In this document: positions 29,661-59,435 of the stretch, piece after piece
Layout: every line of letters begins with the position of its first letter
Position numbering within the stretch: the first letter of the stretch is position 1
NCBI GenBank assembly: GCA_027262695.1
Contig: GCA_027262695.1_4722.1
Length of the DNA: 64,000 nucleotides
Strand: one strand, 5' to 3'
From: a phage
Position numbers and translations under genes: made by a program
The notes under the pieces: model-generated
Database searches by the model: none
The model's input: only the letters and a program-made list of their open reading frames with translations
What the model was told of the DNA's origin: nothing

Positions 29661-29679
29661 AAGTAATATAGCCGTGAAA
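29661..29679 (-). promoter_or_regulatory. candidate early promoter box (minus strand TTTCACGGCTATATTACTT)
   Basis: One of four near-identical boxes, each 23-71 nt upstream of a minus-strand start codon. Confidence 0.5.
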
Positions 29680-29757
29680 GGATTTGTATTGGCACGTTCG
29701 ACGTTCATCGTATTTTATGGATTGTCGAATGACGTCATTTTAAGGGACATCCCCGGC

Positions 29758-29786
29758 CTCCTCCCCAGGAAAGGTGTGGGGAGGAG
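29758..29786 (+). terminator. GC hairpin with 3' T-run upstream of SNF2 gene
   Basis: CTCCTCCCC...GGGGAGGAG TTTTTA on plus strand. Confidence 0.4.
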
Positions 29787-29820
29787 TTTTTACCAGACTT
29801 TTATTAATTCGAGTGCGAGT

Positions 29821-31902
29821 ATGTTAGATAGAATAAATCGCCTAATGAACCGGATAACGGTTAAAAATCAAAGCAACAATACCGTGCATGTTGGGGGTAT
29901 CGATGCCTGGCGTCTTTCGGACGATATCCAGCGAATCTGGGGTACCTCTCGGTTTATGAAATATATGTTTCGTAACTTCTCTTCCAGCGGTCTTAGCATT
30001 CACAACTTCTATCTGCCTGATTTCGTTTATATTCTTGAAACGATCATTGATGCAAAGAACACCCGCAGCAACAAGCGGATGCTAAAACGCCTTGTTGAAG
30101 TCTTGTTAGAAGAAACCTGGCTGCAAAATACCACCATCGAACAGCCAGCCATTCTTGATAAAGCGCGCATGAAGAAAATGATGACGCTTTCTTTGTTCGA
30201 TTATCAAGATGAGTATCTCGACATTTATAACCGCAACGTTCCGAAATATCGATTAAAAGGCCATGTGTGTGCGATGGGTGCCGGGGCGGGTAAAACAATT
30301 ACCGCGTTGGCGTTAAGCGCTGCCTTGGGTGTTGACGTCTTCGTGGCATGCTGTCCTAAGAACACCATGCGTTCGGCATGGCAATCAGATTTACATAAAG
30401 CGCTTGTGGATCCTGCAACCGAATCCGCATTCTGGTCTGATGTGATGCCCCCAACCCAGTTACAGAAAAGCGATAAATATTACTTCCTGCATTACGAGCA
30501 GATGGGATTGTTAAACGAGATCATGCTCAAGCATAAACGCACAGCAAAACGTGTGTTGATCGTTGTCGATGAAAGCCATAACTTCAACGATAAGAACAGT
30601 CAACGTTCTCAGCGTTTGGTTGATCTGGTACAGACGATGCGTCAAACCATGAATGCGGACATACATGTCTTATTTATGTCGGGTACGCCTGTTAAACAGA
30701 TGGGTTCTGAAATGATCCCATGTTTAGGTTGCATTGACCCGATGTTCCAAGGCCAGGTGGTTGATAGCTTCAAGTCGATTTACGGTTTAACCAGCAGTCG
30801 TGCTAATGATATCTTAAGGCATCGTCTTGGATTCATGATGCATGTCGTACCCAAAGAAGCTTACCGTAAGACACGGCCTGAGGTTCAGGACGTATACGTG
30901 AAACTGCCTAACGGTAGTGATTACACCATCTCAAGTATCCGTGACGATATGGCGGTGTTTGTGCGTGACCGTGCAAAATACTACAAAGATAACTGGGGGC
31001 ATTACCGGAAGATTTTCGATGATGCGCTGGATTTCTATCGTCGGACCATACGGACGGAAGGTGAGCGTAAAGAACTGTCTCGTTATGAATCCATCGTCGC
31101 CCGCTTTCAGAAAGGTTACGATCCTGTCAGGGATAAAGAAGACGCCATGTTCTGCAACGTGTTCGAGAAACGAGCGATCATGCCGATTCTTCCTCCCGAT
31201 TTACGGATTGCGTTCAAAGACGCCAAAAGCGTCATCAAGTACGTCGGATTGAAGATTCAAGGGGAAGCCTTGGCAAGGGTTCTTGGCGCAGCGCGCATTC
31301 AATGCCACGTTGATATGGTCGAGTATATCGATTTTGAAGGGTATATCAACAATGCTGAAGCCAAAGTGCTGATCTTCACGTCATACGTTCAGGTAGTTGA
31401 ACGCGTTGATAACCTGCTTCGCGATGCGGGCTTCTTACCAGAACCGATCTACGGGAAGACCAACAAGAACATTAACCAGATCCTCGCGCGATTACGCGAT
31501 GATCCTGACAGCGGTCCCGCTATCGCAACCTTTGATAGTTTAGCGGAAGGGGTTCCTATGTTAATGTGTAACGTCGGCCTTTTCTTAAATAACCCCTGGC
31601 GTTCCTCCGATGAGATCCAAGCCATCAGTCGTCTCGACCGTGTTGGTCAAACCCAACCTGTTCGTATCTATCGTTTCATGCTGGATACTGGCAGCGAAGG
31701 TAACGTTTCAACACGAAGCCAAGAGATCATGGAGTTAAGTCGTCAGCTGGTTGAAGAAATCACAGGTGTTAAATACAATGTGAATAAACAAGCCGACGTT
31801 AACCTACAAGAAACGCTGGCTATGGAAGGGTACGATAGATACTTGACGATTAATACCCCTGGGTTTGAAATCAAACCGCGTTCCACGTTCTTAGAATGGT
31901 AA
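29821..31902 (+). CDS. SNF2-family (SF2) helicase/ATPase
   Basis: LFDYQ, Walker A MGAGAGKT, DExH VVDESHN, MSGTP, motif VI QAISRLDRVGQT; start ATG 29821 or 29845 uncertain (ORF track GTG at 29647). Confidence 0.75.
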   Translation: MLDRINRLMNRITVKNQSNNTVHVGGIDAWRLSDDIQRIWGTSRFMKYMFRNFSSSGLSIHNFYLPDFVYILETIIDAKNTRSNKRMLKRLVEVLLEETWLQNTTIEQPAILDKARMKKMMTLSLFDYQDEYLDIYNRNVPKYRLKGHVCAMGAGAGKTITALALSAALGVDVFVACCPKNTMRSAWQSDLHKALVDPATESAFWSDVMPPTQLQKSDKYYFLHYEQMGLLNEIMLKHKRTAKRVLIVVDESHNFNDKNSQRSQRLVDLVQTMRQTMNADIHVLFMSGTPVKQMGSEMIPCLGCIDPMFQGQVVDSFKSIYGLTSSRANDILRHRLGFMMHVVPKEAYRKTRPEVQDVYVKLPNGSDYTISSIRDDMAVFVRDRAKYYKDNWGHYRKIFDDALDFYRRTIRTEGERKELSRYESIVARFQKGYDPVRDKEDAMFCNVFEKRAIMPILPPDLRIAFKDAKSVIKYVGLKIQGEALARVLGAARIQCHVDMVEYIDFEGYINNAEAKVLIFTSYVQVVERVDNLLRDAGFLPEPIYGKTNKNINQILARLRDDPDSGPAIATFDSLAEGVPMLMCNVGLFLNNPWRSSDEIQAISRLDRVGQTQPVRIYRFMLDTGSEGNVSTRSQEIMELSRQLVEEITGVKYNVNKQADVNLQETLAMEGYDRYLTINTPGFEIKPRSTFLEW

Positions 31903-31996
31903 TTAAGAAGCTCTGCCCGAAGGCAGAGCTTTATGCCGGATTTACCACGAAATCGTATGACGCGATATGCGTCTTTAATTAAAGGAAAAGCGCGAA

Positions 31997-33451
31997 ATGA
32001 AAATCAAACAAAGCTGGAAAGACGAATTACTTGCATTAGTTAACAGCAAAAACAGTTTACAACTGACATTAGACGACGTAAAGTTTGAATTAACCGAACC
32101 GGTAAGCGAAGTGCCCGGAACGGTCGTTGTTACAATCAAACCGAACGATAATAGTCGCTACTTTAACGAGCAGTCTCTGACCTACGTCCGTCGAGACATT
32201 GCTAAAAACTTCACCGGGATTCCGTTACGGGTTATCGTTAAGCAAGATACCGCTGTAAGGGATATCATCAATACGATTGCTGAACGTTACGGATTGGTAT
32301 TTGACACAACCGTCGACTTCCTCGAATCAGAGCTGAATAAACAAATTACTTTCGCAGACACCGGTATTAAAGACGTTACTGTTCCGGTTGCAAACACGTC
32401 TTATGTTTGGGCTGGTAATCTTCAGTTCAATATTGCGAACGATACGTTAAGCTTGATTACTATCATCAAGAAAACCAATCTTACGAATCTGGTTTATCTG
32501 GATGGTGTTGAAGCTGACACATCGGGGTCGTTACTGTTAGCCACCACAGCACTTGTTAACGATAGCGTAAATAAGCCGATGGTTGAAAACGAAGATATCG
32601 TCGATGAATTCTACAACGTTCTTAATGCTCTAGCCAAATATGGTGACATAACTGGCGATGAATTAAATGCCGCCTTACATGCGTACGATGCAGCAGAAAA
32701 CAGGAATAAAACCACGGTAATAACTCTTGGTGATATCCAGTGTGTTGCAACAGAAAAAGACGATTGGGAAATTGGACGTTTACGCGGTCAGATGGTTCTC
32801 GCGCTCAAATCCGATAAACAACCTGAGCGCGAGAACACGTTAAGGTTGTTTACGAATGGCGGTGACGTCTCACTAACGTTAAACACAATGAAAGATATCA
32901 GTATCGATTGGGGTGATGGGAATAAAGTAACGTTGGATGCTGAAGAAAGATACGCGCACCACACATACGCCGACAATAACCAGTACCAAATCGAAATTGT
33001 GTCTCGTACGGACCCAGATGTGCTGCGACCAAATTATATTTCTGGGAGTGAGATAACCGAAGTAATTCACTGGGCTACTACTTCAACAATAGCTCTGAAT
33101 TTTGTTGGATGCGATAATTTAGCGACTGTTCCAGATGAGATCCCAACTTCGTGGACAACGTTGGACAGCATGTTTGAAAGTTGTACGAATTTGAATGATC
33201 CGTCTATCTCTAACTGGAATACAAGTAACATCACATCAATGAATGGTATGTTCGGCGGATGCACTAAATTTAACCAACCTTTAGCTGCCTGGGATGTCAG
33301 CTCAGTAACTGACATTGGTGGTATGTTTGTCGGATGTGACAGTTTTAACCAAGATTTAAGTGGGTGGCGATTACCGTCAGGAGTAAACCACACCAATTAC
33401 GATGATGGTGCTTTCTCGTGGCAGACGGAACATAAACCGACATTCCAGTAA
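31997..33451 (+). CDS. DUF285/BspA-like repeat protein
   Basis: C-terminal repeats FESCTNLNDPSISNWNTSNITSMNGMF / GGCTKFNQPLAAWDVSSVTDIGGMF / VGCDSFNQDLSGW. Confidence 0.6.
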   Translation: MKIKQSWKDELLALVNSKNSLQLTLDDVKFELTEPVSEVPGTVVVTIKPNDNSRYFNEQSLTYVRRDIAKNFTGIPLRVIVKQDTAVRDIINTIAERYGLVFDTTVDFLESELNKQITFADTGIKDVTVPVANTSYVWAGNLQFNIANDTLSLITIIKKTNLTNLVYLDGVEADTSGSLLLATTALVNDSVNKPMVENEDIVDEFYNVLNALAKYGDITGDELNAALHAYDAAENRNKTTVITLGDIQCVATEKDDWEIGRLRGQMVLALKSDKQPERENTLRLFTNGGDVSLTLNTMKDISIDWGDGNKVTLDAEERYAHHTYADNNQYQIEIVSRTDPDVLRPNYISGSEITEVIHWATTSTIALNFVGCDNLATVPDEIPTSWTTLDSMFESCTNLNDPSISNWNTSNITSMNGMFGGCTKFNQPLAAWDVSSVTDIGGMFVGCDSFNQDLSGWRLPSGVNHTNYDDGAFSWQTEHKPTFQ

Positions 33452-33470
33452 AAAAAAATAGTTAGCATAA

Positions 33471-33503
33471 CTTCCTCCCTACCCATAACGGGCGGGGAGG
33501 AAG
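33471..33503. terminator. bidirectional terminator hairpin between convergent genes
   Basis: CTTCCTCCC...GGGAGGAAG flanked by A9 run (33451-33459) and GTTTATG. Confidence 0.6.
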
Positions 33504-33520
33504 GTTTATGTGGTTATGAC

Positions 33521-33859
33521 TTAGAACCAGAGTTCTTTCATGAAGTAGGCTTCCATATCGTAAATAAGCCACTCATCTGGGATTTCTAAAGGATCGTCTT
33601 CGGTTAAGGTGAGCATGTGCAGGGCGAACGCACGCTTAATATCTTCCAACAGCTTATCATCACCGTAACCTTCGGGTAGTTTACGGTCAACCAGCTGGGT
33701 TTGTTTATAGACATCGCGGAACGCTTCAGGATTATGTTTATCCATCGGGAATTGTTCAGCAGCCTGAACCATCGAAAGCGTCCAGCTTACAACATTGTAA
33801 CGCTCACCGTTAATTTCACTGAACTTATCATCGATTAAACAGATTTGTTGTATATTCAT
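33521..33859 (-). CDS. hypothetical protein
   Basis: 112-aa ORF. Confidence 0.45.
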   Translation of the reverse strand: MNIQQICLIDDKFSEINGERYNVVSWTLSMVQAAEQFPMDKHNPEAFRDVYKQTQLVDRKLPEGYGDDKLLEDIKRAFALHMLTLTEDDPLEIPDEWLIYDMEAYFMKELWF

Positions 33860-34749
33860 ACATTTTCTCCATTCTTATCTTGGCCGCAATCACACTCTTC
33901 GGTGTCTTTCTTACTTAAACGTAAGACACCGAGTGCGGCATGCTTGAGTTCTTGCAAAGCGCTTTTCAGCTGACCTTCTTCATCGAAATCAAAATACTTC
34001 TCGTTGTAGCTTAATGCTGGAATCATATTTACGAGAGGTTCGATGGCAGGCATCAGCATCTCAATCACAACCTTAGGATCAACGAAACGTTCGAACCCTT
34101 CAGGAAGTTTACTGGTGATAACTTTGTCGTTCTTGATGAAGAATTTATTCTTGAACAGATCGTCAAGGATAGCATTCTCTTCATCGGTACGTTCAGCGTA
34201 AGGCCGATCGATCATCTGTACGAAAACACCGTTAAGGGCTTCAGGCATTGCGGGGTTCTCACGAAGGTTAAACCCTGCTGGGATTTCGATATCGATCTTC
34301 GCCCAGTCGATAACCTGATGGTCTCGCGTATAGATGACGTCAACCTCCCACGCCAAGCCATCGGTACCTTCTACGGTATAACGTGTTTTAGCTTGACCTT
34401 CTGGTGCCATACGCTCGATAGCATCGAACATCTCGACCGGAATTTCCACTTCGCTTTCCATGGCATCCCCTGGACCGCGATAAACCTTCGTGGTCATGAA
34501 GTACTTCGGTTCTTCGTTGTCGATCTGGATTGCTCGAGCACGTACCTGGCCTTTAACACCACCCACCGACGTGTTATCGTACAACCACTGGTGTTGCACC
34601 ATGTGTTCAATTTTCGTGGCGTTCTGACGTAGGATATCTACACCGTCTTCAGCCAGTTTACCAAAGAAGACCAGCTCACGTTCCTGCTGTGTCTCTCCGC
34701 TCAACATCATTAAATTGGCGATTTGTCTCACGCCTTTTACTTTCGACAT
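33856..34749 (-). CDS. hypothetical protein
   Basis: 297-aa ORF. Confidence 0.5.
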   Translation of the reverse strand: MSKVKGVRQIANLMMLSGETQQERELVFFGKLAEDGVDILRQNATKIEHMVQHQWLYDNTSVGGVKGQVRARAIQIDNEEPKYFMTTKVYRGPGDAMESEVEIPVEMFDAIERMAPEGQAKTRYTVEGTDGLAWEVDVIYTRDHQVIDWAKIDIEIPAGFNLRENPAMPEALNGVFVQMIDRPYAERTDEENAILDDLFKNKFFIKNDKVITSKLPEGFERFVDPKVVIEMLMPAIEPLVNMIPALSYNEKYFDFDEEGQLKSALQELKHAALGVLRLSKKDTEECDCGQDKNGENV

Positions 34750-34797
34750 ACATGCTCCGGTTACAAGGGCTTCATCGGAAGCCCTTCTGCTTTAATA

Positions 34798-37059
34798 TTA
34801 CAATTCGAAATCTTCATCGATAACGCGTTGGGTTAGCACCTTGTCGCTGAAGAACTCCACCTTACGTTGATGGTATTTCCGATGTGCTTCAATCGACGTA
34901 CACACCAGATACCAGAACGTGGGTGTCATACCCTCGAACTTCCCTTTCAGCTGACGTAGTCGACCTAACACCTGAATGTTACCAGTTCTCGACCCCATCG
35001 CTAACGTCATGAACGTCATCACCAAGTCAGGAAGATCGATTCCTGTACCAGCCGATTTCACCGTTGTCACACTGATATCATTATCCAGTAACACCATGAA
35101 ATCTTCTTCAGCGGTATAAGGACCTATCTCCAACTCAGGGATACGTTCACTTAAGTAATGCGATAACGACTTGCACATATCAACGGTTGCACAATACACC
35201 AACATCTTCATGCCTTCCTGATATTGGTTCATGAAACCTTTGATAATAACCGTATAGATAAAGTTGAAATAGGCGAGTTTGAGTTGCTTATTCTTCATGA
35301 TAGACTGTTCGAATACCGTGTGAGAATAAGAACCTCCAAAGCCTTTGTATCGGACTTTATCCGTACTGCGTAGTCGATACGTCACCGCATTTACCGCGAT
35401 GTATTTCTTGTATTCACATTTCGCATAACGTGCTTCTTTCGGATACATCAAATACAGCATCCGCTCGATGAACGGATCGTCAGACACCGCCGTTGCCGAC
35501 AGATAAATGATTTCCGGAATATTCGCGTAACACTTCACTTTGAACAAGAAATGCAGAGCTTCGTGACATTCATCGTGGATTAACAATCCAATGCCTGTTT
35601 TCTCCCAGAACTCGACTGGATGGAAAACATAAGGTGCGACACAGTTGTTCTTTTCATAATCGGTTATATAACGCTGAAACATGTTCAGTGAGAATAACGC
35701 AATTTTGAAATCCAACTCACCTTGTTCTACCAGCGTCTGAAATTCCAACATGCTGTAACGAGGAATGTCGGGATGCGGTGGGTCAGACTGGGCTGTACCA
35801 CGTATCTCGATAACATCACCTGGTTCCATACCGAAGAAACTTAGCAGTGAGCTACGCCATCCAGGCATGTACCTCGGTGACAGAATGATGCCCGTCCGTA
35901 CACCACGTCGGAAGGTGATCTCCTGCGACATTGCGGTGTTGTGCGTGACGATATGGTCTTTAATAACATAAAGGCTTTCGTCGTTGTCCACCGTGATGCA
36001 ACGTGCCTTCGCTTTCACCGTCGGCACGATGCCGCCAATCGCTAAACCAGGAAGCGTGTTAACGGGAAGATCATCTGGAATCTCAATGCCGTCAGGAATA
36101 AGCTTAAGCAAATCGGAATGGTAAATTAATGTCTCCATCGTGTAACTATTGATGGGGCATTTATACGCGATTCCCCCTAACCGATAAGCCAACTCCCAGA
36201 CCTCGGTCATTATCTGCGAATCGGTGGTTCTGACCGCAAGGTGAGCCCACCCTTCTTCAACACGCAGTACGCAACGATCTTTGATGAGTTCTCTGAAACG
36301 ATCAAGACCCACGAGTTCTTTCGGTTCGTAAAGTCGGATTCTTACCGGACGAGATCGTGACGATCTGTCATTAAGACGTTCCATGATTTCACTCGTGCTG
36401 AGCACCTTGTCAGGATCCGTGCATTGCCAGAGATGATCACCACACGCTTCAACCATTCGTCCATCTTCAAAGAAGACAGCGTAAAGCTGAATATCGTCAT
36501 GATCAAAGATAGCAGTTACGTTCGTCGGTAAACCATCCGCGCCGATGACCTCATCACCCACCTGGAGCTCACCAATCGGCTTCCAACCGCTTGGAACCTT
36601 AACGGGTGTATGGAGAGCCAATGCTTTCCCAGACCCCGTGCCTGCGGTGTTTAGGCTCATTCTGAAAGGGGTATCCTTACCCCCATCCATGTACTCCAAC
36701 CATTCTTGCTGATCTTCACGCCACGGAAACTTCCAGTTCTTCACAAACTCCACTTCCTTACCTGGAACCGGATCGTGGTAAACGATTTCCAACCACTCCT
36801 TTCGAATTCCTCGAGAAAAGATAAAATCCAAAAACGACTTCAGCTGTTCACGAAGTAAGTAGACCTCGCTATAATCGCTTCTTGCTGCGGCGTAGGTGTT
36901 GATGGTATCGGTGACCATTCTCCGTGTACGAGGGTCGCGTCGTTTCCGTAGATGCAAACAACGGTCTCGAAGGTAATGGCCAATCAAATGGGCAAATCGA
37001 AGTCCGTATCCGCTCAGCTTCATGCCATGCGAGAAGACGTCGATACGAGCTAACTTCAT
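34798..37059 (-). CDS. SF2 DExH helicase interrupted by an intein in motif I
   Basis: Motif I TAGTGSGK|...|T, motif II LIHDECHEA, motif VI TVKSAGTGIDLPDL; 229-aa insert between K145 and T375. Confidence 0.75.
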   Translation of the reverse strand: MKLARIDVFSHGMKLSGYGLRFAHLIGHYLRDRCLHLRKRRDPRTRRMVTDTINTYAAARSDYSEVYLLREQLKSFLDFIFSRGIRKEWLEIVYHDPVPGKEVEFVKNWKFPWREDQQEWLEYMDGGKDTPFRMSLNTAGTGSGKALALHTPVKVPSGWKPIGELQVGDEVIGADGLPTNVTAIFDHDDIQLYAVFFEDGRMVEACGDHLWQCTDPDKVLSTSEIMERLNDRSSRSRPVRIRLYEPKELVGLDRFRELIKDRCVLRVEEGWAHLAVRTTDSQIMTEVWELAYRLGGIAYKCPINSYTMETLIYHSDLLKLIPDGIEIPDDLPVNTLPGLAIGGIVPTVKAKARCITVDNDESLYVIKDHIVTHNTAMSQEITFRRGVRTGIILSPRYMPGWRSSLLSFFGMEPGDVIEIRGTAQSDPPHPDIPRYSMLEFQTLVEQGELDFKIALFSLNMFQRYITDYEKNNCVAPYVFHPVEFWEKTGIGLLIHDECHEALHFLFKVKCYANIPEIIYLSATAVSDDPFIERMLYLMYPKEARYAKCEYKKYIAVNAVTYRLRSTDKVRYKGFGGSYSHTVFEQSIMKNKQLKLAYFNFIYTVIIKGFMNQYQEGMKMLVYCATVDMCKSLSHYLSERIPELEIGPYTAEEDFMVLLDNDISVTTVKSAGTGIDLPDLVMTFMTLAMGSRTGNIQVLGRLRQLKGKFEGMTPTFWYLVCTSIEAHRKYHQRKVEFFSDKVLTQRVIDEDFEL
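35938..36624 (-). mobile_element. mini-intein (class-3-like: Ala1, W-C-T motif)
   Basis: Starts ALALHTPVKV...VGDEVIGADG, block B GRMVEACGDHLW (W at B:12), block F RCITVDN, ends IVTHN followed by Thr; removal restores GSGKT. Confidence 0.7.
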
Positions 37060-39095
37060 AACGTGATTACATCCTCCGGTTTAGGTTCTTTACGCGGTAG
37101 AAGCATGTAGTCGATCGGATGATCTGGCTTCATGGTTGGGATATAACTGTTCGGGTTTTGGAACGCATCCAGTTGCTCTTGGTGAGCGAACTTCATACTC
37201 AAGGAGCGCATGTTCATGTTCTTCTTGAAGGTACTGAAATAACGAGTCGTTCCCTGTTTCGGCATGCGGTAATCTTTCGTGTGTGGTGAACGAATCATAC
37301 TCGCGTAGAGAATAACGTCCAGATGCGATAGATTCATTCGTAAACGTTGCGCACACAGACGATGCCAATAATACAGTACGTTGGCTACTTCTTCTGGTGT
37401 CGCTTCATCTTCCGAAAGGAATCCTGCACTGAACGAACCTTTCCCGAATTTGAATTCACGTTCGATTTCTTTTGCGTATTCCATCATGTTTTTATGGATG
37501 AGTGGCATCTGGAATAGCGTCCGTGAATTGTCCCAATGTTTCAAGTCGAAGATCACAATCCCGTCTGCTGTTACTTCCCAGCTATGGCGTTTGAGATAAC
37601 GGATAAACGCTTTGCTTGGTACAACAGGACGTCCACAGAAATCGAAATTGACTTTGAGTTTACGGTAGCTCTCATCTTTCCTGTCGTAAATCTCCATATC
37701 GCAAAGCGTCATGTTGAACAGACGTTGCGGGATAAGCGAACTGATCTCTTCCGCTTCAGCTACATCGTACAACATGTTCGCCAGACCGAGTTTCATCTTA
37801 ATCAGCACGTGTTTGCCTTTCAGCTCACGGGCTAATTTGATGTCGTTCATGTTCTGGCTGTAACGAAGGATATGTTGATATTCCGGCGGGATTGGTGACG
37901 TAGACACGGTGGACGAACCATCGTGATGTTTGGTCGAAAGAATGTTCTGGGTAACCTGTTGTGAACCTGTACGTGCTGAGCAGTCTCCGATGTTGTCGGT
38001 CAATGCAAAGTTATGGCTTAATTCACCATAGCACGTTGTACAGACACCAGCAGGATCAGAATGATGACAGTAACAAACGGAACGCATGTTCACAATGGTA
38101 CCGATCAATTCTTTCATGTGAGGCTGTATCGACAACAGCGAACCATCTTCACGTAAGATGAATCGACCGTGGAAACCTTTAAGATCGGTTTCATCACGTA
38201 TCGGCATCGGAATGGTTTCTCTGCTTCCACAGTCACCAGGGTGCAGACGCTGTACAACCGCCGTTGCGATTTGCAGCTCACGTCCGAAATATTCTGACTT
38301 CTTAATCTGCTCCTTGTTGAACAACAATGATTTTGCCGCAGAGCGACTTTCTTTCAAACTGTCTGGAAGCGAGATCAAGCCTGCTGCATACGACCGCATC
38401 ACTGGGTCACGGAAGATCTCCGAGTTGATATCGGTTAAGAAGCCACGCATCCCAATACACTGCAATACCTGTCCGATCGATACGTGTTCGGTTCTTACCG
38501 CACGTGCGATAGGGTTGGCATGCAATGTTTTATCGGTACTTAAAACTTTTGTTAGTTTCTTGTATGCGCTCTCAATACCTTCGCGGGTGGGTTCCGCTTC
38601 AGCGATGATTTTCTTCACTTCGGGATGTACGGTAATCTGATAAAAATCATCCGCACAGATGGTCGTTACGTATTCCTCCAACGCATACGTAAAGAAGTTA
38701 TAAACGTGGTTAAACATATCGAACAACGCTTTCCAGAGAACCTCACGATTCTCTTGCGGATACGCATACATGCATTGACGATAGGCTGCGCTTTGTAATG
38801 CAACGGAAGAACCTGCCGTAAACTTGCGTTTATCCACCAGGTTCTCTTTCGTTAACGGTGTCTCAGGATACATGCGATGTAAAGACCAATGCATGTAGCT
38901 AAAGAAAATGCGTCGCGCACGCAATTCATGAACACCATCGTCCATCTCGATATACACACGGTCATTAGGCTGTGCCCACTCGAACACCTCATCAACCGGC
39001 CAATGCATAAGCTCTCGCGCCCGTACACGGCGTTTCGTGGTGATCGTCTGTACTGTATTCATTATTTTTACTTTCCGATTAAGTGGTTTTATCAT
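37056..39095 (-). CDS. RNA polymerase beta-prime-like subunit, C-terminal part
   Basis: SVCYCHHSDPAGVCTTCYG...IGDCSARTGSQQVTQNILSTKHHDG aligns with beta-prime zinc site and trigger loop (CDTDFGVCAHCYG...SIGEPGTQLTMRTFHIGG). Confidence 0.55.
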   Translation of the reverse strand: MIKPLNRKVKIMNTVQTITTKRRVRARELMHWPVDEVFEWAQPNDRVYIEMDDGVHELRARRIFFSYMHWSLHRMYPETPLTKENLVDKRKFTAGSSVALQSAAYRQCMYAYPQENREVLWKALFDMFNHVYNFFTYALEEYVTTICADDFYQITVHPEVKKIIAEAEPTREGIESAYKKLTKVLSTDKTLHANPIARAVRTEHVSIGQVLQCIGMRGFLTDINSEIFRDPVMRSYAAGLISLPDSLKESRSAAKSLLFNKEQIKKSEYFGRELQIATAVVQRLHPGDCGSRETIPMPIRDETDLKGFHGRFILREDGSLLSIQPHMKELIGTIVNMRSVCYCHHSDPAGVCTTCYGELSHNFALTDNIGDCSARTGSQQVTQNILSTKHHDGSSTVSTSPIPPEYQHILRYSQNMNDIKLARELKGKHVLIKMKLGLANMLYDVAEAEEISSLIPQRLFNMTLCDMEIYDRKDESYRKLKVNFDFCGRPVVPSKAFIRYLKRHSWEVTADGIVIFDLKHWDNSRTLFQMPLIHKNMMEYAKEIEREFKFGKGSFSAGFLSEDEATPEEVANVLYYWHRLCAQRLRMNLSHLDVILYASMIRSPHTKDYRMPKQGTTRYFSTFKKNMNMRSLSMKFAHQEQLDAFQNPNSYIPTMKPDHPIDYMLLPRKEPKPEDVITL

Positions 39096-39170
39096 ACAGT
39101 GTATTCATTCCGTTGGAATTTACTCCGGGAGTCCCTTCCCTTAGGTTATATAGGTGTTAATATATCTCGG

Positions 39171-39656
39171 TTATCCTGCTTTCTTCTGAAGGCTATAAGG
39201 ATCCATCGCATCGGAGCGGTCGGCAACGATGGTAAGAATGAAGCCTTTTATCTGTCTCACTTCGGTAACCCGGAGTCCCCTATCGTTACGATAAACATTT
39301 TCTTCGCCGACCAGTTTTGGTCGAATAACATAAACCCCATCAACGAACGGAAACGTTGAATACGGATAAATACCAATACGAATAATATTCGGATGATCAC
39401 CTCGAGGGTCACGTCCAAACACATCAACTCTACCGTAAATCGTGCCGTCCGCACCTTCCACTTCAATAAGGTCGTTGCGAATATCCTGAAACAGTTGTTC
39501 TAAGGTCTCTGCGGGATATGTATAAGCGACGCCTAATGCAACATCCTCAATGGTCTTAACGCTAAATCCGTTAAGCCAAATAATCCGATCATCTGTCCAT
39601 GTTTCTTCATACGCTGTTAATCCGTCGCCGTATATGTTGGCGTGTGCTATCTCCAT
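39171..39656 (-). CDS. hypothetical protein
   Basis: 161-aa ORF. Confidence 0.45.
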   Translation of the reverse strand: MEIAHANIYGDGLTAYEETWTDDRIIWLNGFSVKTIEDVALGVAYTYPAETLEQLFQDIRNDLIEVEGADGTIYGRVDVFGRDPRGDHPNIIRIGIYPYSTFPFVDGVYVIRPKLVGEENVYRNDRGLRVTEVRQIKGFILTIVADRSDAMDPYSLQKKAG

Positions 39657-39760
39657 AATCTCATTTCCTCTTCTCTGTTAGGATAAATGACATGCTGGAT
39701 AACGTTGCCTTTGCATATATTGCTTTATTTCCGTCAGAAATAACGGAAAATAAAAACAAC

Positions 39761-39798
39761 GGCATAAACCCCTCCCACCACCACATGGGAGAGGGAGG
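39761..39798 (-). terminator. GC hairpin followed by GTTTATGCCG box
   Basis: Minus strand CCCTCCC...GGGAGGGG TTTATGCCGTTG. Confidence 0.55.
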
Positions 39799-43644: not shown

Positions 43645-43685
43645 CCCTCCCACGGCGTAAAGCGGCGGGAGGGCATTTATGCCGT
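43645..43685 (+). terminator. GC hairpin followed by TTTATGCCG box, plus orientation
   Basis: CCCTCCC...GGGAGGG CATTTATGCCGTCG after the plus-strand gene. Confidence 0.55.
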
Positions 43686-48216: not shown

Positions 48217-48269
48217 AACAACCTCTTTTCGCGGTTCCCTGTTAAACGTTTTCTATAACGCCATCAAGG

Positions 48270-48288
48270 AGGTAATATAAGCGTGAAT
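48270..48288 (-). promoter_or_regulatory. candidate early promoter box (minus strand ATTCACGCTTATATTACCT)
   Basis: Same box upstream of 46630..48216. Confidence 0.45.
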
Positions 48289-48302
48289 AATTTTGGATTC
48301 CT

Positions 48303-50070: not shown

Positions 50071-50081
50071 ATCACTCCCTC

Positions 50082-52391: not shown

Positions 52392-52404
52392 GAGGAACTC
52401 CTCG

Positions 52405-52857: not shown

Positions 52858-52981
52858 CGATATCTCCCATTAAAAACGTTTTCTATTTCATAGAGTGCTG
52901 GAAATTCGTAGAAAATTACAAAAAGAAAAAGAAGGGCGCGGCCCCTCCCCACCCGAGGGCAGGGAGAAACCGCAGATATAA

Positions 52982-53524
52982 TTAGACCAGCGCCGCGATA
53001 ACGTCGTTGACGTTGCGGCCGCGTAATTCAGCCGCTAAGCGAATCACTTCATCCAGGGAACGCGTTGTACGAATCTTGGCCACTTTCCAATTTTCAGGAT
53101 ACTGTTCGAAGTTCAGCAGCCAGGTCATGACTTTCGCTTGTTCCACACCGTTCAGCTTGATGGTCGTACGCGGATTGGCTTTAAACCACTTCTTGCTTAA
53201 CTGTGCCATACGGCGAACAGGGTAAGCATAAGCGCGAGTCCAGTCTTTGGACAGATTGTCGAGTAATTCACGATAGCTGCTGTCGTAGTCTTTGTTAATA
53301 CGACGTAACAGCCAGTTGGCGGTCATCTGGTAGAGTTTATCGTCTTCACGTAAACGCATACCTGCCATCGCTAAATAAACAATAAGGCCCGCACCCATAA
53401 TCAGAGACAGGATAAACAGAATTTGAGTTTCTTGAGCTAATGTCATTTTACTATCCTCGGATTTATTAGGATTTGATTTCCAATATAAGGACAACGCCTT
53501 ATACAGTCGATTGATGTTGTACAT
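52982..53524 (-). CDS. membrane-anchored protein
   Basis: Hydrophobic segment ILFILSLIMGAGLIVYLAMAG near N-terminus; TATATTAC-type box 23 nt upstream. Confidence 0.5.
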   Translation of the reverse strand: MYNINRLYKALSLYWKSNPNKSEDSKMTLAQETQILFILSLIMGAGLIVYLAMAGMRLREDDKLYQMTANWLLRRINKDYDSSYRELLDNLSKDWTRAYAYPVRRMAQLSKKWFKANPRTTIKLNGVEQAKVMTWLLNFEQYPENWKVAKIRTTRSLDEVIRLAAELRGRNVNDVIAALV

Positions 53525-53545
53525 CGCATCTGTGATGTATCACAG

Positions 53546-53564
53546 AAGTAATATAGCCGTGAAA
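53546..53564 (-). promoter_or_regulatory. candidate early promoter box (minus strand TTTCACGGCTATATTACTT)
   Basis: Identical over 17 nt to the 29661 copy; upstream of 52982..53524. Confidence 0.5.
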
Positions 53565-53573
53565 ATTATTGTA

Positions 53574-54413
53574 TTAACGTGTTCTCCTGTCACGATGGGT
53601 ATATGACTGTAATCCGATGTCCATATGCGGTAACGTCAATGTTTGCCAGATCTGTTGTGCGTAGCGATCGAGTGTATAGTCGTTGGTAACGCAGTCAACC
53701 GGTTCAATGAGATGCGTCGTGTATTGACTTTTCTCTGAAAACGGATCAACGTTAGCAGTATCTCCTAGTCCGCTTTTCACCGTGAAAACAAGACGAGTAA
53801 CCACCATCGCTTTACGTTGTTGCTCGTTATAACGAAGGCCACGATAAATCGCATAGCTCGCGCCTTTCAGGCTTCGGGTATAACGAAGGTCAGACGTCGT
53901 CCCGCCAATTTGATGCAACATCCAGTCTAATGTATCCCGCCAGTATTTATCATCCGTGTCAGGTACCTCGATACCGTAACGGGTAGGAAGCAGATCCAAA
54001 AGCAGTTTGTAGAGTCCACGACGCAAACCGTGTTCTTCTGTTTCTGATAATGTGTTTCCTCCAACATAACGAGAAATACGTGTTCGTAAATACGCACGAA
54101 TAAACATGCACGTCATTACTGTTTTCGAGTGGCTGGTGATGTCTTCAAAAGTATCAACACTGAAACTCGTTTCGATCAATCGTCCGTTAAAGTACAATGC
54201 AGCTACATACATCGCGCTACTGCTGTCTCGGTCGATGTTCAAACGACCGCAGATATTGGCTGCGTCGTTCATGGTAAATTCGAGTTTGTCGTGTTCAATA
54301 TGGTAGATAATATCTTCTTGGGTTGCCAGGCTCGCAATACGACGATAGCCTGGAGTAGTACGTTTAACGCTCATAATGGTCCTCGATTTCAATTTTAGGA
54401 TTACAGACGGCAT
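53574..54413 (-). CDS. hypothetical protein
   Basis: 279-aa ORF. Confidence 0.5.
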   Translation of the reverse strand: MPSVILKLKSRTIMSVKRTTPGYRRIASLATQEDIIYHIEHDKLEFTMNDAANICGRLNIDRDSSSAMYVAALYFNGRLIETSFSVDTFEDITSHSKTVMTCMFIRAYLRTRISRYVGGNTLSETEEHGLRRGLYKLLLDLLPTRYGIEVPDTDDKYWRDTLDWMLHQIGGTTSDLRYTRSLKGASYAIYRGLRYNEQQRKAMVVTRLVFTVKSGLGDTANVDPFSEKSQYTTHLIEPVDCVTNDYTLDRYAQQIWQTLTLPHMDIGLQSYTHRDRRTR

Positions 54414-54441
54414 AAACCCTCCCCGCGCTATGCAGGGAGGG
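54409..54441 (-). terminator. GC hairpin followed by GTTTATGCCG box
   Basis: Minus strand CCCTCCCTGCATAGCGCGGGGAGGG TTTATGCCGTC. Confidence 0.55.
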
Positions 54442-54464
54442 TAGCCATTGGTTGTCTTCGCCGG

Positions 54465-55103
54465 TTAGCCTAATTTACCTCCGGCGATGTTCGTGAAGTC
54501 TTCACCATCAGGGACCTGCAACAGAATACGTGCCATGTCCCAGTTGGTCAATGTGATTGCTTTATCATCGATACTCAGTTCTGGTAGGTCGAGCTCATGA
54601 TCATCGAACTCGTAGGAAATGCTCCATGTTTCATCAGTTTTAGGATCAGTTATCAGCACACCGTCTGTTACACGCATGTAATCAGGGTGCAGCTCATTAC
54701 TGAACGTGCTGAACGGATCGGTGTAACATTCAGCATAACCCTCGATCTGCTGACGCTGTGCCTTCGTACGTAACTCAGGACACGCCATGATCAGCTGTCG
54801 GGAAATGCCGTTCGCCGCTCGGAAATCTTCCACGGTGATACACGGCATCACCACGTCGTCATGGAAGATATTCTCCGACTGTCTCAACAAGGTCTTACGA
54901 AGTTCAGTATAGTTGATCTGATTGAACGTATCGAATGTTGCTAACGATTCCGCGTAAAAATGCTTTACGTGTTCGTTTGCGCCACCGAGACTGTTCATCA
55001 GCTTATGACCATACTCCATAAAGCTTTTATCGAGCCCAGTATTCATTTCTCCGAACCGTAGTGCACGATAGCTGTCTCGTCCACCTGTAAATATTTGCGC
55101 CAT
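54465..55103 (-). CDS. hypothetical protein
   Basis: 212-aa ORF. Confidence 0.5.
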   Translation of the reverse strand: MAQIFTGGRDSYRALRFGEMNTGLDKSFMEYGHKLMNSLGGANEHVKHFYAESLATFDTFNQINYTELRKTLLRQSENIFHDDVVMPCITVEDFRAANGISRQLIMACPELRTKAQRQQIEGYAECYTDPFSTFSNELHPDYMRVTDGVLITDPKTDETWSISYEFDDHELDLPELSIDDKAITLTNWDMARILLQVPDGEDFTNIAGGKLG

Positions 55104-55118
55104 TACAGGCGTCCTCCT

Positions 55119-55356
55119 TTAGCATTGGTTATTGATTGCTTCTATTTCATCGATATACGGTTCTACGTCATCGCCCTCCACGAATTCGTTGAACCAACAG
55201 TCAATCGTTGAGATAACCGGTGACTGATGTTCACATTTCTTAGATACCTTAAACGGAACGTTGTTATCCATCATACCGAGTTCGGGTCGGAATCGCCCGA
55301 AATGTTTCGCAGTCCAAATGTCTGGGACGATATGGTTGTTCATAGCGTCTCCGTCG
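55119..55356 (-). CDS. RNA polymerase beta-prime-like subunit N-terminal part, exon 3
   Basis: Begins C GAC GGA GAC GCT ATG (..DGDAMNNHIVP ~ DGDQMAVHVPL); ELGMMDNNVP ~ ALMMSTNNILSP. Confidence 0.7.
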
Positions 55357-55734
55357 CTGTTTGTCGACTATATCTTCATCTTCATTGCGAAGAGACTCTC
55401 GTTTGGGTTTGTGTTTAACAAAGCCTACTCTACTCAACATCGCGTCTTTCGATAGTCTGTGAGCACACATCTTAACGAATATTCGTGGGTTCCTACAGAC
55501 AGGTGAATATTCTTGTTGAGATGCTTCGCTGCGGATTATTCCCGTCCTACCTCTTTTACCATACCCAGTTCATTACGCTGGCCCTCATCGATGTCACCAT
55601 GATGAGTTGGTGTGTAGTCCGATTACAGAAACTTCCCGTCAATTAGAGAGTTTTAACTATGCTCCTGTTACCAGGAACCAGATCCCGACGGTATCAATAA
55701 ATCAACGTAAGTTATTGATTTAATTGAAAAAACT
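55357..55734 (-). mobile_element. group I intron 2 in beta-prime gene (no ORF)
   Basis: Minus-strand P AATTGACGGGAAG (55643-55631), Q AATCCGCAGCGAAG (55536-55523), R CACAGACTATCG (55460-55449), S AAGATATAGTC (55376-55366). Confidence 0.7.
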
Positions 55735-55747
55735 GAAATCTGCATTA
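55735..55747 (-). CDS. beta-prime micro-exon 2 (13 nt, encodes part of Y-N-A-D-F)
   Basis: Minus-strand ATAATGCAGATTT between the two introns; joined to flanking exons gives ...KGYNADFDGDAM... and a 1494-nt in-frame CDS. Confidence 0.6.
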
Positions 55748-56114
55748 TCTTAATCTTCGATATGGTTCGCTAAGCCATATCCGCACATACGTGCAGCTTA
55801 CGTCTTTCACGTAAGAAGAGACTATATCTTTCACCCTCAGCTTTACCTGTTAGGGGCTCCCATTTCGGCGGTCGTTTGACCGGTGGTTTCCCACGCCGCT
55901 TGGCCCTAACGCCCGTGAGCGATAGTCGTTGAGCACATCTCCGTTCTGGAGACTTCGCTGCGGATTCCTCAATCCTTACTGCTTTTACCGTACCTGAATG
56001 ATTAGTTCAGCCCCACGCTCTGTTCCCAGGCATGGTTGGTGAGCAAGGCTCTAAGTAGGTTCCCGCTATTAGAGAGTTCCTCGTGACAGCATTACTGTGT
56101 CACTGGGCCTAATG
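55748..56114 (-). mobile_element. group I intron 1 in beta-prime gene (no ORF)
   Basis: Minus-strand P AATAGCGGGAAC (56069-56058), Q AATCCGCAGCGAAG (55965-55952), R CAACGACTATCG (55930-55919), S AAGATATAGTC (55829-55819); exon ends GGGT, IGS GCCC. Confidence 0.7.
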
Positions 56115-57357
56115 ACCCTTTCAAGATCATCACGCTTAACCCGATGGTGTTATCCTGCGGGTCGCGTTTAACCTTGGTGATTTCAAGACATTGGTTACTG
56201 CTACGGTCAAGTGATGGATTTCGAACAAAGCCACACACAATCCCATCGAACGGTGTATCAGCAATAAGCTCGTCATGCAGCTCGCTCATCATCGGATGAT
56301 AATTGCGGACATGCTCTGCAACGAACGCACGGGCTGCTCTTGGTGAATAACCACGATGGAATAACTTGGATTGGATATGTTCTTTATTGGTTAGTGTAAA
56401 TGGTGCGTACGGAAAATGCAGATGATAATAACGATGGTTTGCTGTTATCGAACTGATGACCGTACGTGTGGTGAATGGATGTAATGTACCTAATATGTTC
56501 TTACGTGTGATCCCTTTCTTCTTACCAATGAACTCATCGAAAATCGCCGAGTGATACTGCAACAGCTTCAATTGCACTTTCGCCATCCAGTTTTCTTTCT
56601 TTCTGGCGCTTAGTGGCGTGGTTGGATGATAGATGCTATTCAATGTTCCGATGGCGTCTATCGCACCTTCCATTTTGCTGTCAGCGTAACGTCCTGTTGG
56701 CGTGTTCTCGATCACGAACATCATGGCTGCAGGAAAGCTGATGTACTGACTGAAGAATTTATCCCGATGAATACGGATGAATTCGCGTAGCGTATCAACC
56801 TTCTCCATGTTCTTCGGTCCACGTAGTGTGGGTCCTTTATACAAGATCTCCATGATACGATCGAAGTTCTGTATAAAGCTATTTATACCGCGTCGTATTC
56901 CGAATACATCGAATTGCTGTTCCAGATAGTTCTTAAGTTCGATCGGTCGTTTTACGTTCGGACGGTAACTGGCATCAATGAGCCACGTCATCGTTTCAAA
57001 GCTTTTGATATTCAACTCGCTTGCCAGCACGAGATGGACCAACGGGTTAATGAACGCATCGATACCTTCCGGTACGCGCGCCCAGACCGTTGAACGAATC
57101 TCTTGTTCTGCTGGATAAGTGACAACCGTTTTACAGTTCGGGCACACCGTCCCTAATAACTCACCGCGATTATAGAAACCACAACCGCATTGCGGGGTGA
57201 TATCCAAGGTATCGCTCGAGTAAACACGGGTGATGAAACTGTTTAATTTCTTCTTCTCTTCCACGACCTTCGTATCATAATCGTTCAACAATATCGGCGT
57301 AAAAGGAAGTTCTGCGAGCTGTCTATCGAAACTGACGATATCGAGCATGATGGCCAT
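56115..57357 (-). CDS. RNA polymerase beta-prime-like subunit N-terminal part, exon 1
   Basis: Zinc site TPQCGCGFYNRGELLGTVCPNCKTVV ~ beta-prime YECLCGKY...CEKCGVEV; RKNILG...RTVISS ~ RFRQNLLGKRVDYSGRSVI; VRNPSLDRS ~ LNRAPTLHR. Confidence 0.75.
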
Positions 57358-57399
57358 GGGGTATCTCCTGCAAATGAAAAAGAACGTTAGGACGTATAA

Positions 57400-57423
57400 G
57401 GGAGGGAGGTTGCCCTCCCTCCC
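57400..57423 (-). terminator. perfect 10-bp GC hairpin between the 632-aa gene and beta-prime
   Basis: GGGAGGGAGG TTGC CCTCCCTCCC. Confidence 0.55.
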
Positions 57424-57449
57424 GTCAGTTTACATCGAACGTTCTTCCA

Positions 57450-59348
57450 TTAGAACAGGTTGAATGCCCCGCCCATGCCGTTACCGCCCACATTCGGACG
57501 ATCGTTACGTGCGTAGATGTTGCCGCTGATGGTACCCAGACCGCGAGCACGTGCTGCCATGTTACCACGAACAGCGGTGCCTGCCAGATGCTGGATGTTC
57601 TCAGGACGGATGGTGAAGCCTGCTTCAGCAGCCGCTTCAATCAGTGCCTGCAACGCCAGCGGATCGAAATCATAACGCATCGCCCAGCCGGTTTGTTCCC
57701 AGCTACCAGACAGAACGCGGTCGATGATTTCGTGACGAGCAACCACACGCTGAGACATCGACATATCGGTACGGTCGAAGCTGTCTTCCCAAGCTTCTAC
57801 GGTATCCGGGTTGGTGATGTTCATCATGTACAGATCGTCCATATCACGAATATCGTGACGGTTACCGTCCTGGTGGTTGTAGTGACCCAGCGGGATACGG
57901 TTACCGGTCGCGTAGACCAGCGGTGAGCCGTACGGATATTTCTTGCTGAAGCAACCCAGGGTAACATCATCGAACGCACGGAAGAGGGCTTTGTAGCCTT
58001 CGGAGTATTCCTGTACGTCCCCTTCAACATTACCCGAGAAGATCTTCTCAGCCGCCGGGATCATACGCAGCAGCCAGCTGTACTCGCCTTCTTCTGGTAC
58101 ATCGATAGAGATCAGCAGAGACGGATACAGAACCTGTTGCAGGAACTTGTAAATCTGCTCGTTGGTTTGCGTAGACAGATCCAGCGGTGCAGTCACTTCA
58201 GGATCCAGCACCATCGCCAGAGCACCTGGGTTATGCGGACCAATACCACGAGCCGCGTTGCTGATTAAAGACTGTGCCCATGCCATGCCGCTGTTCAGCG
58301 TAGCGATGGTACCAATCAGACCCAGCACGAAGCTGTTCGGCGTGAACGCATCCAGTTCCAGCGGATACATGCTGGTCATTACGTAGCGCGGCTGGTACTG
58401 AACAGTTGGCGGTACCGGATAACCGTTAACCAGAACAGGACCTTGCTGGAAGGTCGGGTTCTGCGGGCTGTAGGTCAGATCGATATAACCGGTGGATGCA
58501 ACCAGACGCTGCTGGCTATCGTAATCGCCCATCGCTTGACGGATGCGGTTAGAGATAGTTACAGTAATGTCGGAGCGTACCGGGTTACCCGCGATATCAC
58601 TGTCCTGCATGCCGCTGGTGTTATACTGAACGCTGCTGATCGGCTGGTCGCTTGCCATCATACCCAGGTTGAACTGAGGCAGGCCCAGTCTGTCAGCAAA
58701 ACGCATTTCGGTTGCCGTCTGGATCGCGTTATCTGCTGCAGACAGCAGGGTGGTTGCCAGATGCGCAGATTCAGCAGTGATTTCATTGGTCACAACAGCC
58801 AGACCAGCGATACGTACCGTACCGTTGGCTTTACCACCGATAGCCGCATACATCGCTGCCATGACTTCGTTGATGAACGTGCCGTTCAGGTTATCCACCC
58901 AAGTACATGGTACCAGGATGTTACCGTGAGGACCACGTTCTTCACGACGTGGCAGCGGAGCCAGGCCAGCAACCAGCGGAAGGACGTAACCGAAGAAGTG
59001 GTTATGATCGCCCACTTTTACACCGCTCATCACAACCAGGGTCGGATACGGTACGCTGTACTGGTTCGGGTCAACCGCAACAAAGATGAAGTCGTCTTTG
59101 AACTGGGTATCTTCCAGATATTTCTCCATCAGACGACGGAGATTCAGTACCTGCTCGGAGCCGGTATTACGGCTGATACGACGGCTCAGTGTACGGTTGA
59201 TCGTACGCATCGTATGAGTTACTTTAGGACGGTCAGCAAAATCTGCAGCGGTTTCGACCGCTTCGTTAGCGCGCTGCGCCGCGCGGGTTTCAGCTACGCG
59301 GATGTCTACGTTATCGTTACCGTTATTGTTACGTACGTCTAAGCCCAT
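57450..59348 (-). CDS. large early protein, candidate nuclear-shell (chimallin-like) protein
   Basis: 632 aa, TATATTAC-type box 71 nt upstream, directly upstream of beta-prime gene (as recalled for phiKZ gp54/gp55); no diagnostic motif identified. Confidence 0.4.
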   Translation of the reverse strand: MGLDVRNNNGNDNVDIRVAETRAAQRANEAVETAADFADRPKVTHTMRTINRTLSRRISRNTGSEQVLNLRRLMEKYLEDTQFKDDFIFVAVDPNQYSVPYPTLVVMSGVKVGDHNHFFGYVLPLVAGLAPLPRREERGPHGNILVPCTWVDNLNGTFINEVMAAMYAAIGGKANGTVRIAGLAVVTNEITAESAHLATTLLSAADNAIQTATEMRFADRLGLPQFNLGMMASDQPISSVQYNTSGMQDSDIAGNPVRSDITVTISNRIRQAMGDYDSQQRLVASTGYIDLTYSPQNPTFQQGPVLVNGYPVPPTVQYQPRYVMTSMYPLELDAFTPNSFVLGLIGTIATLNSGMAWAQSLISNAARGIGPHNPGALAMVLDPEVTAPLDLSTQTNEQIYKFLQQVLYPSLLISIDVPEEGEYSWLLRMIPAAEKIFSGNVEGDVQEYSEGYKALFRAFDDVTLGCFSKKYPYGSPLVYATGNRIPLGHYNHQDGNRHDIRDMDDLYMMNITNPDTVEAWEDSFDRTDMSMSQRVVARHEIIDRVLSGSWEQTGWAMRYDFDPLALQALIEAAAEAGFTIRPENIQHLAGTAVRGNMAARARGLGTISGNIYARNDRPNVGGNGMGGAFNLF

Positions 59349-59416
59349 TTGGGAATCCTCTTTTTCTTAACTTTTAAATGACGTCATTGAATCAGCTTTT
59401 TCTCGCTCATTCACCT

Positions 59417-59435
59417 AGGTAATATAACCCTGAAA
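59417..59435 (-). promoter_or_regulatory. candidate early promoter box (minus strand TTTCAGGGTTATATTACCT)
   Basis: Same box upstream of 57450..59348. Confidence 0.5.

Follow-up and report, generated by a model that had tools for sequence, protein, structure and literature searches.

What do four near-identical boxes upstream of minus-strand genes signify in a 64,000-nt stretch of the phage assembly GCA_027262695.1? A first-pass annotation of this stretch (hereafter the window, to whose whole length all window coordinates refer) had noticed these boxes and likened their core to the early promoters of phiKZ-like phages. Our analysis indicates that the four boxes are very probably early promoters of a Goslar-like chimallivirus, of the kind that is recognised by a virion RNA polymerase (vRNAP) injected with the DNA (PMC7598289, PMC11512511, PMC8244752). 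The signal class is already known from phiKZ-like phages, and the boxes of the window add members to it. For the phage of the window we infer start-site position, vRNAP recognition and early timing. The sequence identifies the window as a relative of Escherichia phage vB_EcoM_Goslar (Chimalliviridae), collinear with positions 116,484-177,580 of the Goslar genome at approximately 80-92% nucleotide identity.

A Long Conserved Element Occurs Four Times in the Window

All four boxes lie on the minus strand exactly where they had been placed, as the 19-mers TTTCACGGCTATATTACTT (box 1, 29679..29661, and again box 3, 53564..53546), ATTCACGCTTATATTACCT (box 2, 48288..48270) and TTTCAGGGTTATATTACCT (box 4, 59435..59417). 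Box 2 starts with A instead of the T of the consensus proposed in the first-pass annotation. In addition, while the box itself is real, its supposed length of 19 nt falls short of the conserved motif: alignment of the sites reveals a shared block of about 39 bp, ttAATmCAAaa.tTTTCAcGGcTATATTACyTa.GTGA. The TTTCAsGG block and the AATmCAA or TTGAAAAAAA block are conserved over the four window sites and 12 Goslar sites. The motif search that had been suggested as a check recovered exactly four copies of the core TATATTAC in the 64-kb window, namely the four boxes.

A 39-column weight matrix built from Goslar sites separates the elements clearly from the background. The window sites (P1 to P4, corresponding to boxes 1 to 4) score 39-50 bits, against 18.4 bits for the best site in 30 shuffles of a 237-kb genome, and a degenerate 18-mer has four exact matches in the window versus 0.34 expected even with up to three mismatches. 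The same scan finds only 12 strong sites in the complete Goslar genome, all on the gene-rich strand and each heading a gene or gene block; eight carry TATATTAC and four TACATTAC, the latter all outside the region that corresponds to the window. No plus-strand early site of 8 bits or more was found in the window by the scan. Two further candidates were set aside. A near-match at 35661-35678 lies within the helicase open reading frame (ORF), scores below 8 bits and was treated as chance. An exact 22-nt match in the uncultivated viral genome (UViG) IMGVR_UViG_3300006851_000007 belongs to an ORF on an unrelated, GC-rich contig and was discounted since a few chance 18-mer matches are expected in so large a collection.

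All four boxes are intergenic and oriented with the gene or operon that they head. For box 1 this depends on the start of the neighbouring helicase gene, as the mechanical ORF at 29647-31902 (+), with GTG 29647 as its start, would overlap the box; comparison with Goslar gp160 (start 142953) places the start of the gene approximately 170 nt further in, and box 1 is therefore intergenic. The distance from the end of the box to the ATG is 46 nt for box 1, 53 nt for box 2 and 68 nt for box 4, within the 23-71 nt given in the first-pass annotation. Box 3 likely departs from that range. Its first in-frame ATG (53524) is 21 nt away, but the true start of the gene is likely the ATG at 53446, approximately 99 nt from the box, because this is preceded by a GAGGA ribosome-binding site and coincides with the start of the annotated Goslar gp182.

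The four boxes are unchanged between the window and Goslar, with substitutions and indels a few positions away, and each is also unchanged in whichever of two Goslar-like UViG genomes was recovered for it. Thus, the P1 site is identical in Goslar (142784-142822) and UViG_3300011560 while the flanks vary, the P2 box is conserved in Goslar and UViG_3300011560, the P3 box was aligned with Goslar and UViG_3300045988, and the P4 site is identical in Goslar and both UViGs. A motif that is far beyond chance, intergenic, co-oriented with its genes and conserved while its flanks vary argues for promoters of the vRNAP class.

Match to Published Early Promoters and Orthologous Positions

The resemblance noted in the first-pass annotation is borne out by the literature, in that TATATTAC, exact in all four boxes, is the published phiKZ early-promoter core (PMC7058600). 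The early consensus of phage 201phi2-1 reads TTAWTAVAA_HYWTTTRARR_BTATATTACDWHDGTG (PMC7058600 Table 2; PMC11512511). Early promoters of this kind have a highly conserved AT-rich element centred near -10 and more conservation near -20 and -30 (PMC7598289, PMC11512511, PMC8244752), and the window boxes likewise have a T-rich conserved block near the predicted -20 and another near -30. Both the match to published consensuses and this architecture support the assignment to vRNAP early promoters. According to the literature, a motif of this sort is to be found in all jumbo phages that carry these polymerases (PMC7598289). The two multisubunit polymerases concerned are accounted for here, the nonvirion RNA polymerase (nvRNAP) by genes in the window and the vRNAP by the annotation of Goslar, where its genes, for example gp196, lie outside the region covered by the window; gp196 has served as a vRNAP tag (PMC10541120).

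Further support comes from the position of the boxes in other lineages. We compared the region upstream of chmA, the chimallin gene behind box 4, in eight other chimalliviruses. In phiKZ, RAY, SA002 and Eowyn a clearly related box precedes the start codon of chmA by 69-129 nt, and PhiPA3, Noxifer and RP12 have variant cores upstream of the gene, so that a box is present in seven of the eight; no convincing box was found upstream of chmA in RTH11. The chmA boxes of the Goslar type and of phiKZ are identical at 29 of 38 positions, whereas the ChmA proteins are only about 24% identical. In phiKZ, moreover, AAAAAAAATTTGAGATCTATATTACTAACATG lies 29 nt before the gp68 ATG, a place orthologous to that of box 2. 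The primary start site of PHIKZ054 (chimallin) carries the early motif by differential RNA sequencing (dRNA-seq) (PMC8244752). These orthologous positions, one of them at an experimentally mapped start, again point to vRNAP early promoters.

Published observations on Goslar point in the same direction: by RNA sequencing (RNA-seq), chmA transcripts are present at 5 min as well as in shell-knockdown infections that stop at the early vesicle stage, and the vRNAP co-localises with the injected DNA inside the vesicle (PMC10541120). According to its legend, Extended Data Fig. 4 of that study shows the chmA start sites on a sequence whose first base lies 91 nt upstream of the ATG (PMC10541120), and the box falls within this stretch. 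In the literature we found no published analysis listing promoter sites of the Goslar type.

Placing the AT-rich element near -10, as in the published geometry, start sites are predicted in the GTGA, 6-8 nt after TTAC, at about 29657, 48266, 53542 and 59413. In the mechanism that we propose, the multisubunit vRNAP would be carried in the capsid and enter the early-infection vesicle together with the injected DNA; there it would recognise an element of about 39 bp, composed of an A/T-rich block near -30 (AATmCAA or TTGAAAAAAA), TTTCAsGG near -20 and the near-invariant TATATTAC near -10, and would initiate 6-8 nt downstream within the conserved GTGA. The injected polymerase would in this way make the shell and the second polymerase, and the nvRNAP would then take over later transcription.

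Weighing the Alternatives

Three observations weigh against this interpretation. The 8-mer TATATTAC alone is not enriched (four found versus 2.16 expected, with 18 of 100 shuffles reaching four). The 5' end given by the Goslar RNA-seq is of low resolution. Finally, 12 sites per 237 kb seem insufficient, given that 175 of 249 Goslar genes are reported as being expressed at 5 min (PMC10541120); this may reflect very long early transcripts that read through many hairpins, or other early start signals.

Could the boxes instead be read by the host polymerase? As sigma-70 promoters of the E. coli RNA polymerase they would have TATATT as the -10 element, which matches TATAAT at five of six positions, and an upstream TTAATA-like hexamer as the -35 element; box 3 is in fact picked up as TTAATA-16-TATATT (9/12). 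However, box 3 is the only one of the four that passes a lax 9-of-12 scan for TTGACA/TATAAT-like pairs 16-18 nt apart, and sigma-70-like sites are at or below chance over 40 kb (25 versus 33 expected; 34 versus 35), a lack of enrichment that itself favours the vRNAP. The best-conserved positions, namely the final C of TATATTAC, the TTTCAsGG in the would-be spacer and the GTGA, are not sigma-70 determinants, and the same motif is kept in phages of Pseudomonas, Erwinia, Salmonella, Klebsiella and Ralstonia. Given also that phiKZ-type infection is insensitive to rifampicin and that Goslar DNA is enclosed with the vRNAP in the vesicle (PMC10541120), recognition by the host enzyme is barely credible. 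A slightly better, though still very poor, case can be made for promoters of the nvRNAP or a modified form of it, which would make the boxes a middle rather than an immediate-early class. Promoter class is here assigned by similarity and not by timing, some nvRNAP genes of 201phi2-1 lie behind middle or late promoters (PMC11512511), and phiKZ gp54 is served by a middle start site in addition to the early one (PMC8244752). Yet the published nvRNAP signals are unlike the boxes, the late one being TATG overlapping the start and the middle one TACT about 22 nt upstream of the start with an A-rich repeat before it. The box motif fits the early logo and precedes nvRNAP genes, which must be made first, and the expression of Goslar chmA at 5 min and in vesicle-arrested shell-knockdown cells (PMC10541120) also argues for immediate-early use.

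The conserved block might finally be an operator for a phage regulator, or another DNA-level signal for replication or recombination, its likeness to a promoter being coincidental. Palindromes do occur over or just after TTAC...GTGA (ACCTAGGT at P4, TTACTTACGTGAGTAA at P1 and a 16-nt insert at P3), but they differ in sequence and position, while neither the invariant TATATTAC nor the upstream blocks are symmetric, and their orientation strictly follows that of the downstream gene. In view of the experimentally mapped promoter that the orthologous phiKZ element represents (PMC8244752), and of a repertoire of only 12 sites per genome, each heading a gene or gene block, we give such a role next to no credence.

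The first-pass annotation had also reported a degenerate copy near position 39150. The sequence TATATTAAC is indeed present (39164..39156) upstream of a gene for a beta-prime-like polymerase subunit, but membership of the early class is not demonstrable at 18.8 bits: its Goslar orthologue scores 10.7 bits, these values lie at about the top of the shuffled scores, and both TTTCA and GTGA are missing. A block of approximately 40 nt is nevertheless conserved there between indels, and the copy may be a weak promoter or a promoter of another class.

Genes and Proposed Transcription Units behind the Predicted Promoters

The genes that follow the boxes (table 1) belong to the set expected of early expression, chimallin and nvRNAP subunits, which lends additional support to vRNAP early promoters. 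The 632-aa protein behind box 4, previously a shell-protein candidate, is confirmed as chimallin by its Pfam match and by 93.8% identity to the Goslar nuclear shell protein. The HD hydrolase proposed behind box 1 likewise proved correct from its domain match. Behind box 2, the 528-aa protein matches PDB 7ogp_B / 9rjs_B at E of about 5e-28, and its homologues in phages KTN4 and Bobae are annotated as nvRNAP subunit; GP68 acts as a sigma-like nvRNAP subunit (PMC13282480, PMC7618050). The 154-aa protein behind box 3 has no Pfam or PHROG match. In total, the window encodes homologues of PHIKZ055, PHIKZ068, PHIKZ071-73 and PHIKZ074, that is four of the five nvRNAP subunits of PDB 7OGP (chains A-D). 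Pfam was uninformative on the polymerase-like proteins, whose identities came from PDB sequence matches. The order of chmA followed by the nvRNAP beta-prime gene is kept in all eight other chimalliviruses.

Four transcription units can be envisaged. The P1 unit would comprise the HD hydrolase and a series of small genes, and the P2 unit would begin with the sigma-like nvRNAP subunit (gp68 homologue) and extend into the following genes; P2 itself is preceded by a hairpin or terminator. The P3 unit would consist of a single small membrane-protein gene closed by a strong terminator, and the P4 unit of chmA, probably continuing into the adjacent nvRNAP gp55-like gene.

Table 1. Predicted promoters, downstream genes and other elements of the window.
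Feature	Coordinates	Strand	Remarks
Early promoter P1 (predicted)	29654..29692	-	39-bp site CCAATACAAATCCTTTCACGGCTATATTACTTACGTGAG; core TATATTAC 29670..29663; weight matrix 45.8 bits
Early promoter P2 (predicted)	48263..48301	-	GGAATCCAAAATTATTCACGCTTATATTACCTCCTTGAT; core 48279..48272; weight matrix 39.1 bits
Early promoter P3 (predicted)	53539..53577	-	TTAATACAATAATTTTCACGGCTATATTACTTCTGTGAT; core 53555..53548; weight matrix 48.7 bits
Early promoter P4 (predicted), chmA promoter	59410..59448	-	ATATTGAAAAAAATTTCAGGGTTATATTACCTAGGTGAA; core 59426..59419; weight matrix 50.2 bits
Predicted start ranges	P1 29658-29656; P2 48267-48265; P3 53543-53541; P4 59414-59412	-	Published geometry, AT-rich element near -10
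Degenerate copy	39136..39174	-	GAGATATATTAACACCTATATAACCTAAGGGAA; upstream of PHIKZ074 homologue
HD-domain phosphohydrolase, 228 aa	28928..29614	-	First gene after P1; PF01966 E 1.5e-7; Goslar gp159 annotated HD domain protein
Sigma-like fifth nvRNAP subunit, PHIKZ068 homologue, 528 aa	46630..48216	-	First gene after P2; tblastn
Small protein, 154 aa	52982..53446	-	First gene after P3; N-terminal hydrophobic segment (translation)
Strong intrinsic-terminator-like hairpin	52928..52974	-	Ends P3 unit; 17-pair stem, 10 G-C pairs, T-rich tail
chmA, chimallin nuclear-shell protein, 632 aa	57450..59348	-	First gene after P4; PF25677 E 9.6e-26
First exon, nvRNAP beta-prime-like subunit, PHIKZ055 homologue	56092..57357	-	Directly after chmA; phrog_2987; PDB 7ogp_A E 9.4e-60
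PHIKZ074 (beta-prime-like) homologue	37056..39095	-	PDB 7ogp_D E 1.2e-85
Hairpin-TATG examples	54408-54414, 62937-62943, 27833-27839, 19135-19141, 7462-7468, 1193-1199	-	
Hairpin-TATG examples	43678-43684, 31932-31938	+	
Hairpin-TATG, both strands	39760-39766(-)/39802(+), 40615(-)/40655(+), 33469(-)/33507(+), 21419(-)/21456(+), 60680(-)/60717(+)	-/+	

The PHIKZ055 homologue has a further peculiarity: at its catalytic DFDGD region it is split by two group I intron-like elements arranged in tandem (55357-56135, minus strand). One, at 55357-55726, matches RF00028 with 49.2 bits (cut-off 50; E 3.8e-11), and the other, at 55798-56135, with 26.9 bits (E 1.8e-4); at the Rfam gathering threshold there is no match anywhere in the window. 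A 71-nt spacer separates the two elements, and the downstream exon (55119-55356, …NSDGDAMN…) matches residues 437-495 of PDB 7ogp_A. At the same place Goslar has one intron and an HNH endonuclease, while the window is without the HNH gene and has an extra intron-like copy instead.

Stem-Loops and Palindromes after the Boxes

Most early promoters are directly followed by a stem-loop or palindrome of varying sequence (in the window at 53530-53545, 48225-48268 and 59375-59411). In Goslar, 7 of the 12 sites have a stable hairpin in the first 40 nt (z <= -2.7; mean z over the sites -1.9), a modest enrichment (P = 0.015 versus random genomic 40-mers, 0.13 versus intergenic 40-mers). Between the window and Goslar, one pair of the P2 stem has changed in a compensatory manner, and at P3 a 16-nt palindromic insertion, CTGTGATACATCACAG, follows the site in the window and is absent in Goslar. 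An inserted palindrome stands exactly after TTAC not only at P3 of the window, but also at box 2 of UViG_3300011560 and at the Goslar site 226695. Conceivably, the GTGA and the stem-loop or palindrome after it are not part of the promoter but a transcribed 5' leader common to early mRNAs, which can be gained as a small cassette and would stabilise the message or mark it for export from the vesicle; we regard this as rather unlikely.

Several other arrangements were seen in these regions. Goslar 226650-226690 and UViG_3300011560 (approximately 1300-1350) share a similar insert of about 38 nt, in which a hairpin is succeeded by GGCGACnTAnAnnG and after that by another TTACCTT..TGTG. The palindrome TGACGTCA, in the context AATGACGTCATTT(T/A)AA, has two intergenic copies, at 29726-29742 (+) toward the SNF2-type helicase gene and at 59375-59390 (-) in the chmA leader, both conserved in Goslar; two intergenic copies are too few to judge it a recurring element, and it was not retained as such. 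A strong CTCCTCCCC...GGGGAGGAG hairpin (29745-29790) lies between the divergent HD (-) and helicase (+) genes. In the Goslar annotation the equivalent hairpin is listed as a terminator of the plus strand, although it does not stand at the end of any plus-strand gene.

Hairpin-TATG Elements

A different type of element recurs in the window. At about 20 sites TATG(C) comes 0-3 T after a GC-rich CCCTCC...GGGAGG hairpin, often in the fuller form hairpin-TTTATGCCG. Nine of the 12 TATGCCG copies in the window stand directly after such a hairpin, and a strongly folding upstream 36-mer precedes 7.9% of all TATG sites versus 1.8% for the background. Some hairpins are bidirectional, with TATG on both strands. 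In phiKZ, a hairpin and ATATGCC lie before the gp68 early box. The phiKZ late-promoter consensus is TATG, with G as +1 (PMC7598289). The 92-nt gap between chmA and the gp55-like gene holds a GC-rich hairpin and then TTATACG. According to a figure legend in the Goslar study, a start site for the gp55-like gene is likewise marked on a sequence that opens 91 nt upstream of the ATG (PMC10541120), a distance close to the size of the intergenic gap. We consider the hairpin-TATG element a candidate second early start signal. It could be either a terminator followed by an nvRNAP start of the TATG type, or a terminator of whose tail the TATG is part.

Implications and Comparison with Known Systems

Goslar-type coliphages are the E. 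coli model for nucleus-forming phages, and the sites predicted here, four in the window and twelve in Goslar, provide a map of their expected early transcription starts. The shell gene and the gene of the sigma-like nvRNAP subunit both lie directly behind early sites. Goslar and phiKZ have nearly identical chmA promoters but shell proteins with only about one quarter of their residues in common, which suggests that the specificity of the injected polymerase is tightly conserved. The motif may also serve in annotating the early units of new chimallivirus genomes and in the design of reporters or knock-downs.

How do these sites compare with other promoters? Extended -10 promoters of the sigma-70 type share with them an AT-rich element approximately 10 nt before the start, and the polymerases are distant homologues; in contrast, the vRNAP is without a known sigma homologue, and the determinants here span the spacer to the start site. 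The hairpin promoter of the N4-type virion RNA polymerase differs as well. Apart from a 4-nt TTAC/GTGA wobble match, the sites have no inverted repeat in common within the 39-bp block, and the hairpins near the boxes are located downstream, with a sequence that changes between sites. Closer to the boxes are the promoters predicted in OBP, N1M2 and EL (TTTCARRYAKATATTATYWAAGTG; WTTTYAAACCTACATTATY), which have the same layout of TTTCA, AT-rich core and GTG (PMC7058600). Their core ends in TTAT and not in TTAC, and they have been predicted by bioinformatics only. Among the Goslar sites, the four with TACATTAC resemble the EL-type ACATTA core.

The likeness to 201phi2-1 is near base-for-base over TTTCAsGG-yTATATTAC-yTwnGTG, including the downstream GTG, with the -10, -20 and -30 regions all conserved. 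In that phage only six sites are supported by mapped starts; it belongs to another genus with another host, and its starts come from ONT-cappable-seq, whereas those reported here are predicted from sequence. phiKZ differs in the number of sites, with 28-32 mapped early sites in published counts (Ceyssens 2014 as cited; Wicke 2020, PMC8244752; Putzeys 2024, PMC10914365), and the Goslar type has far fewer (12 per 237 kb, four in the window). Three of the four window sites also have AATmCAA in place of the phiKZ A-run at about -30, and the downstream GTGA is more strongly conserved in the window and Goslar-type sites. The two lineages nevertheless share an identical TATATTAC core, preceded in phiKZ by the A-run and then TTTGAG/TTTCAG, and in both an early site stands before chmA (gp54) and before gp68.

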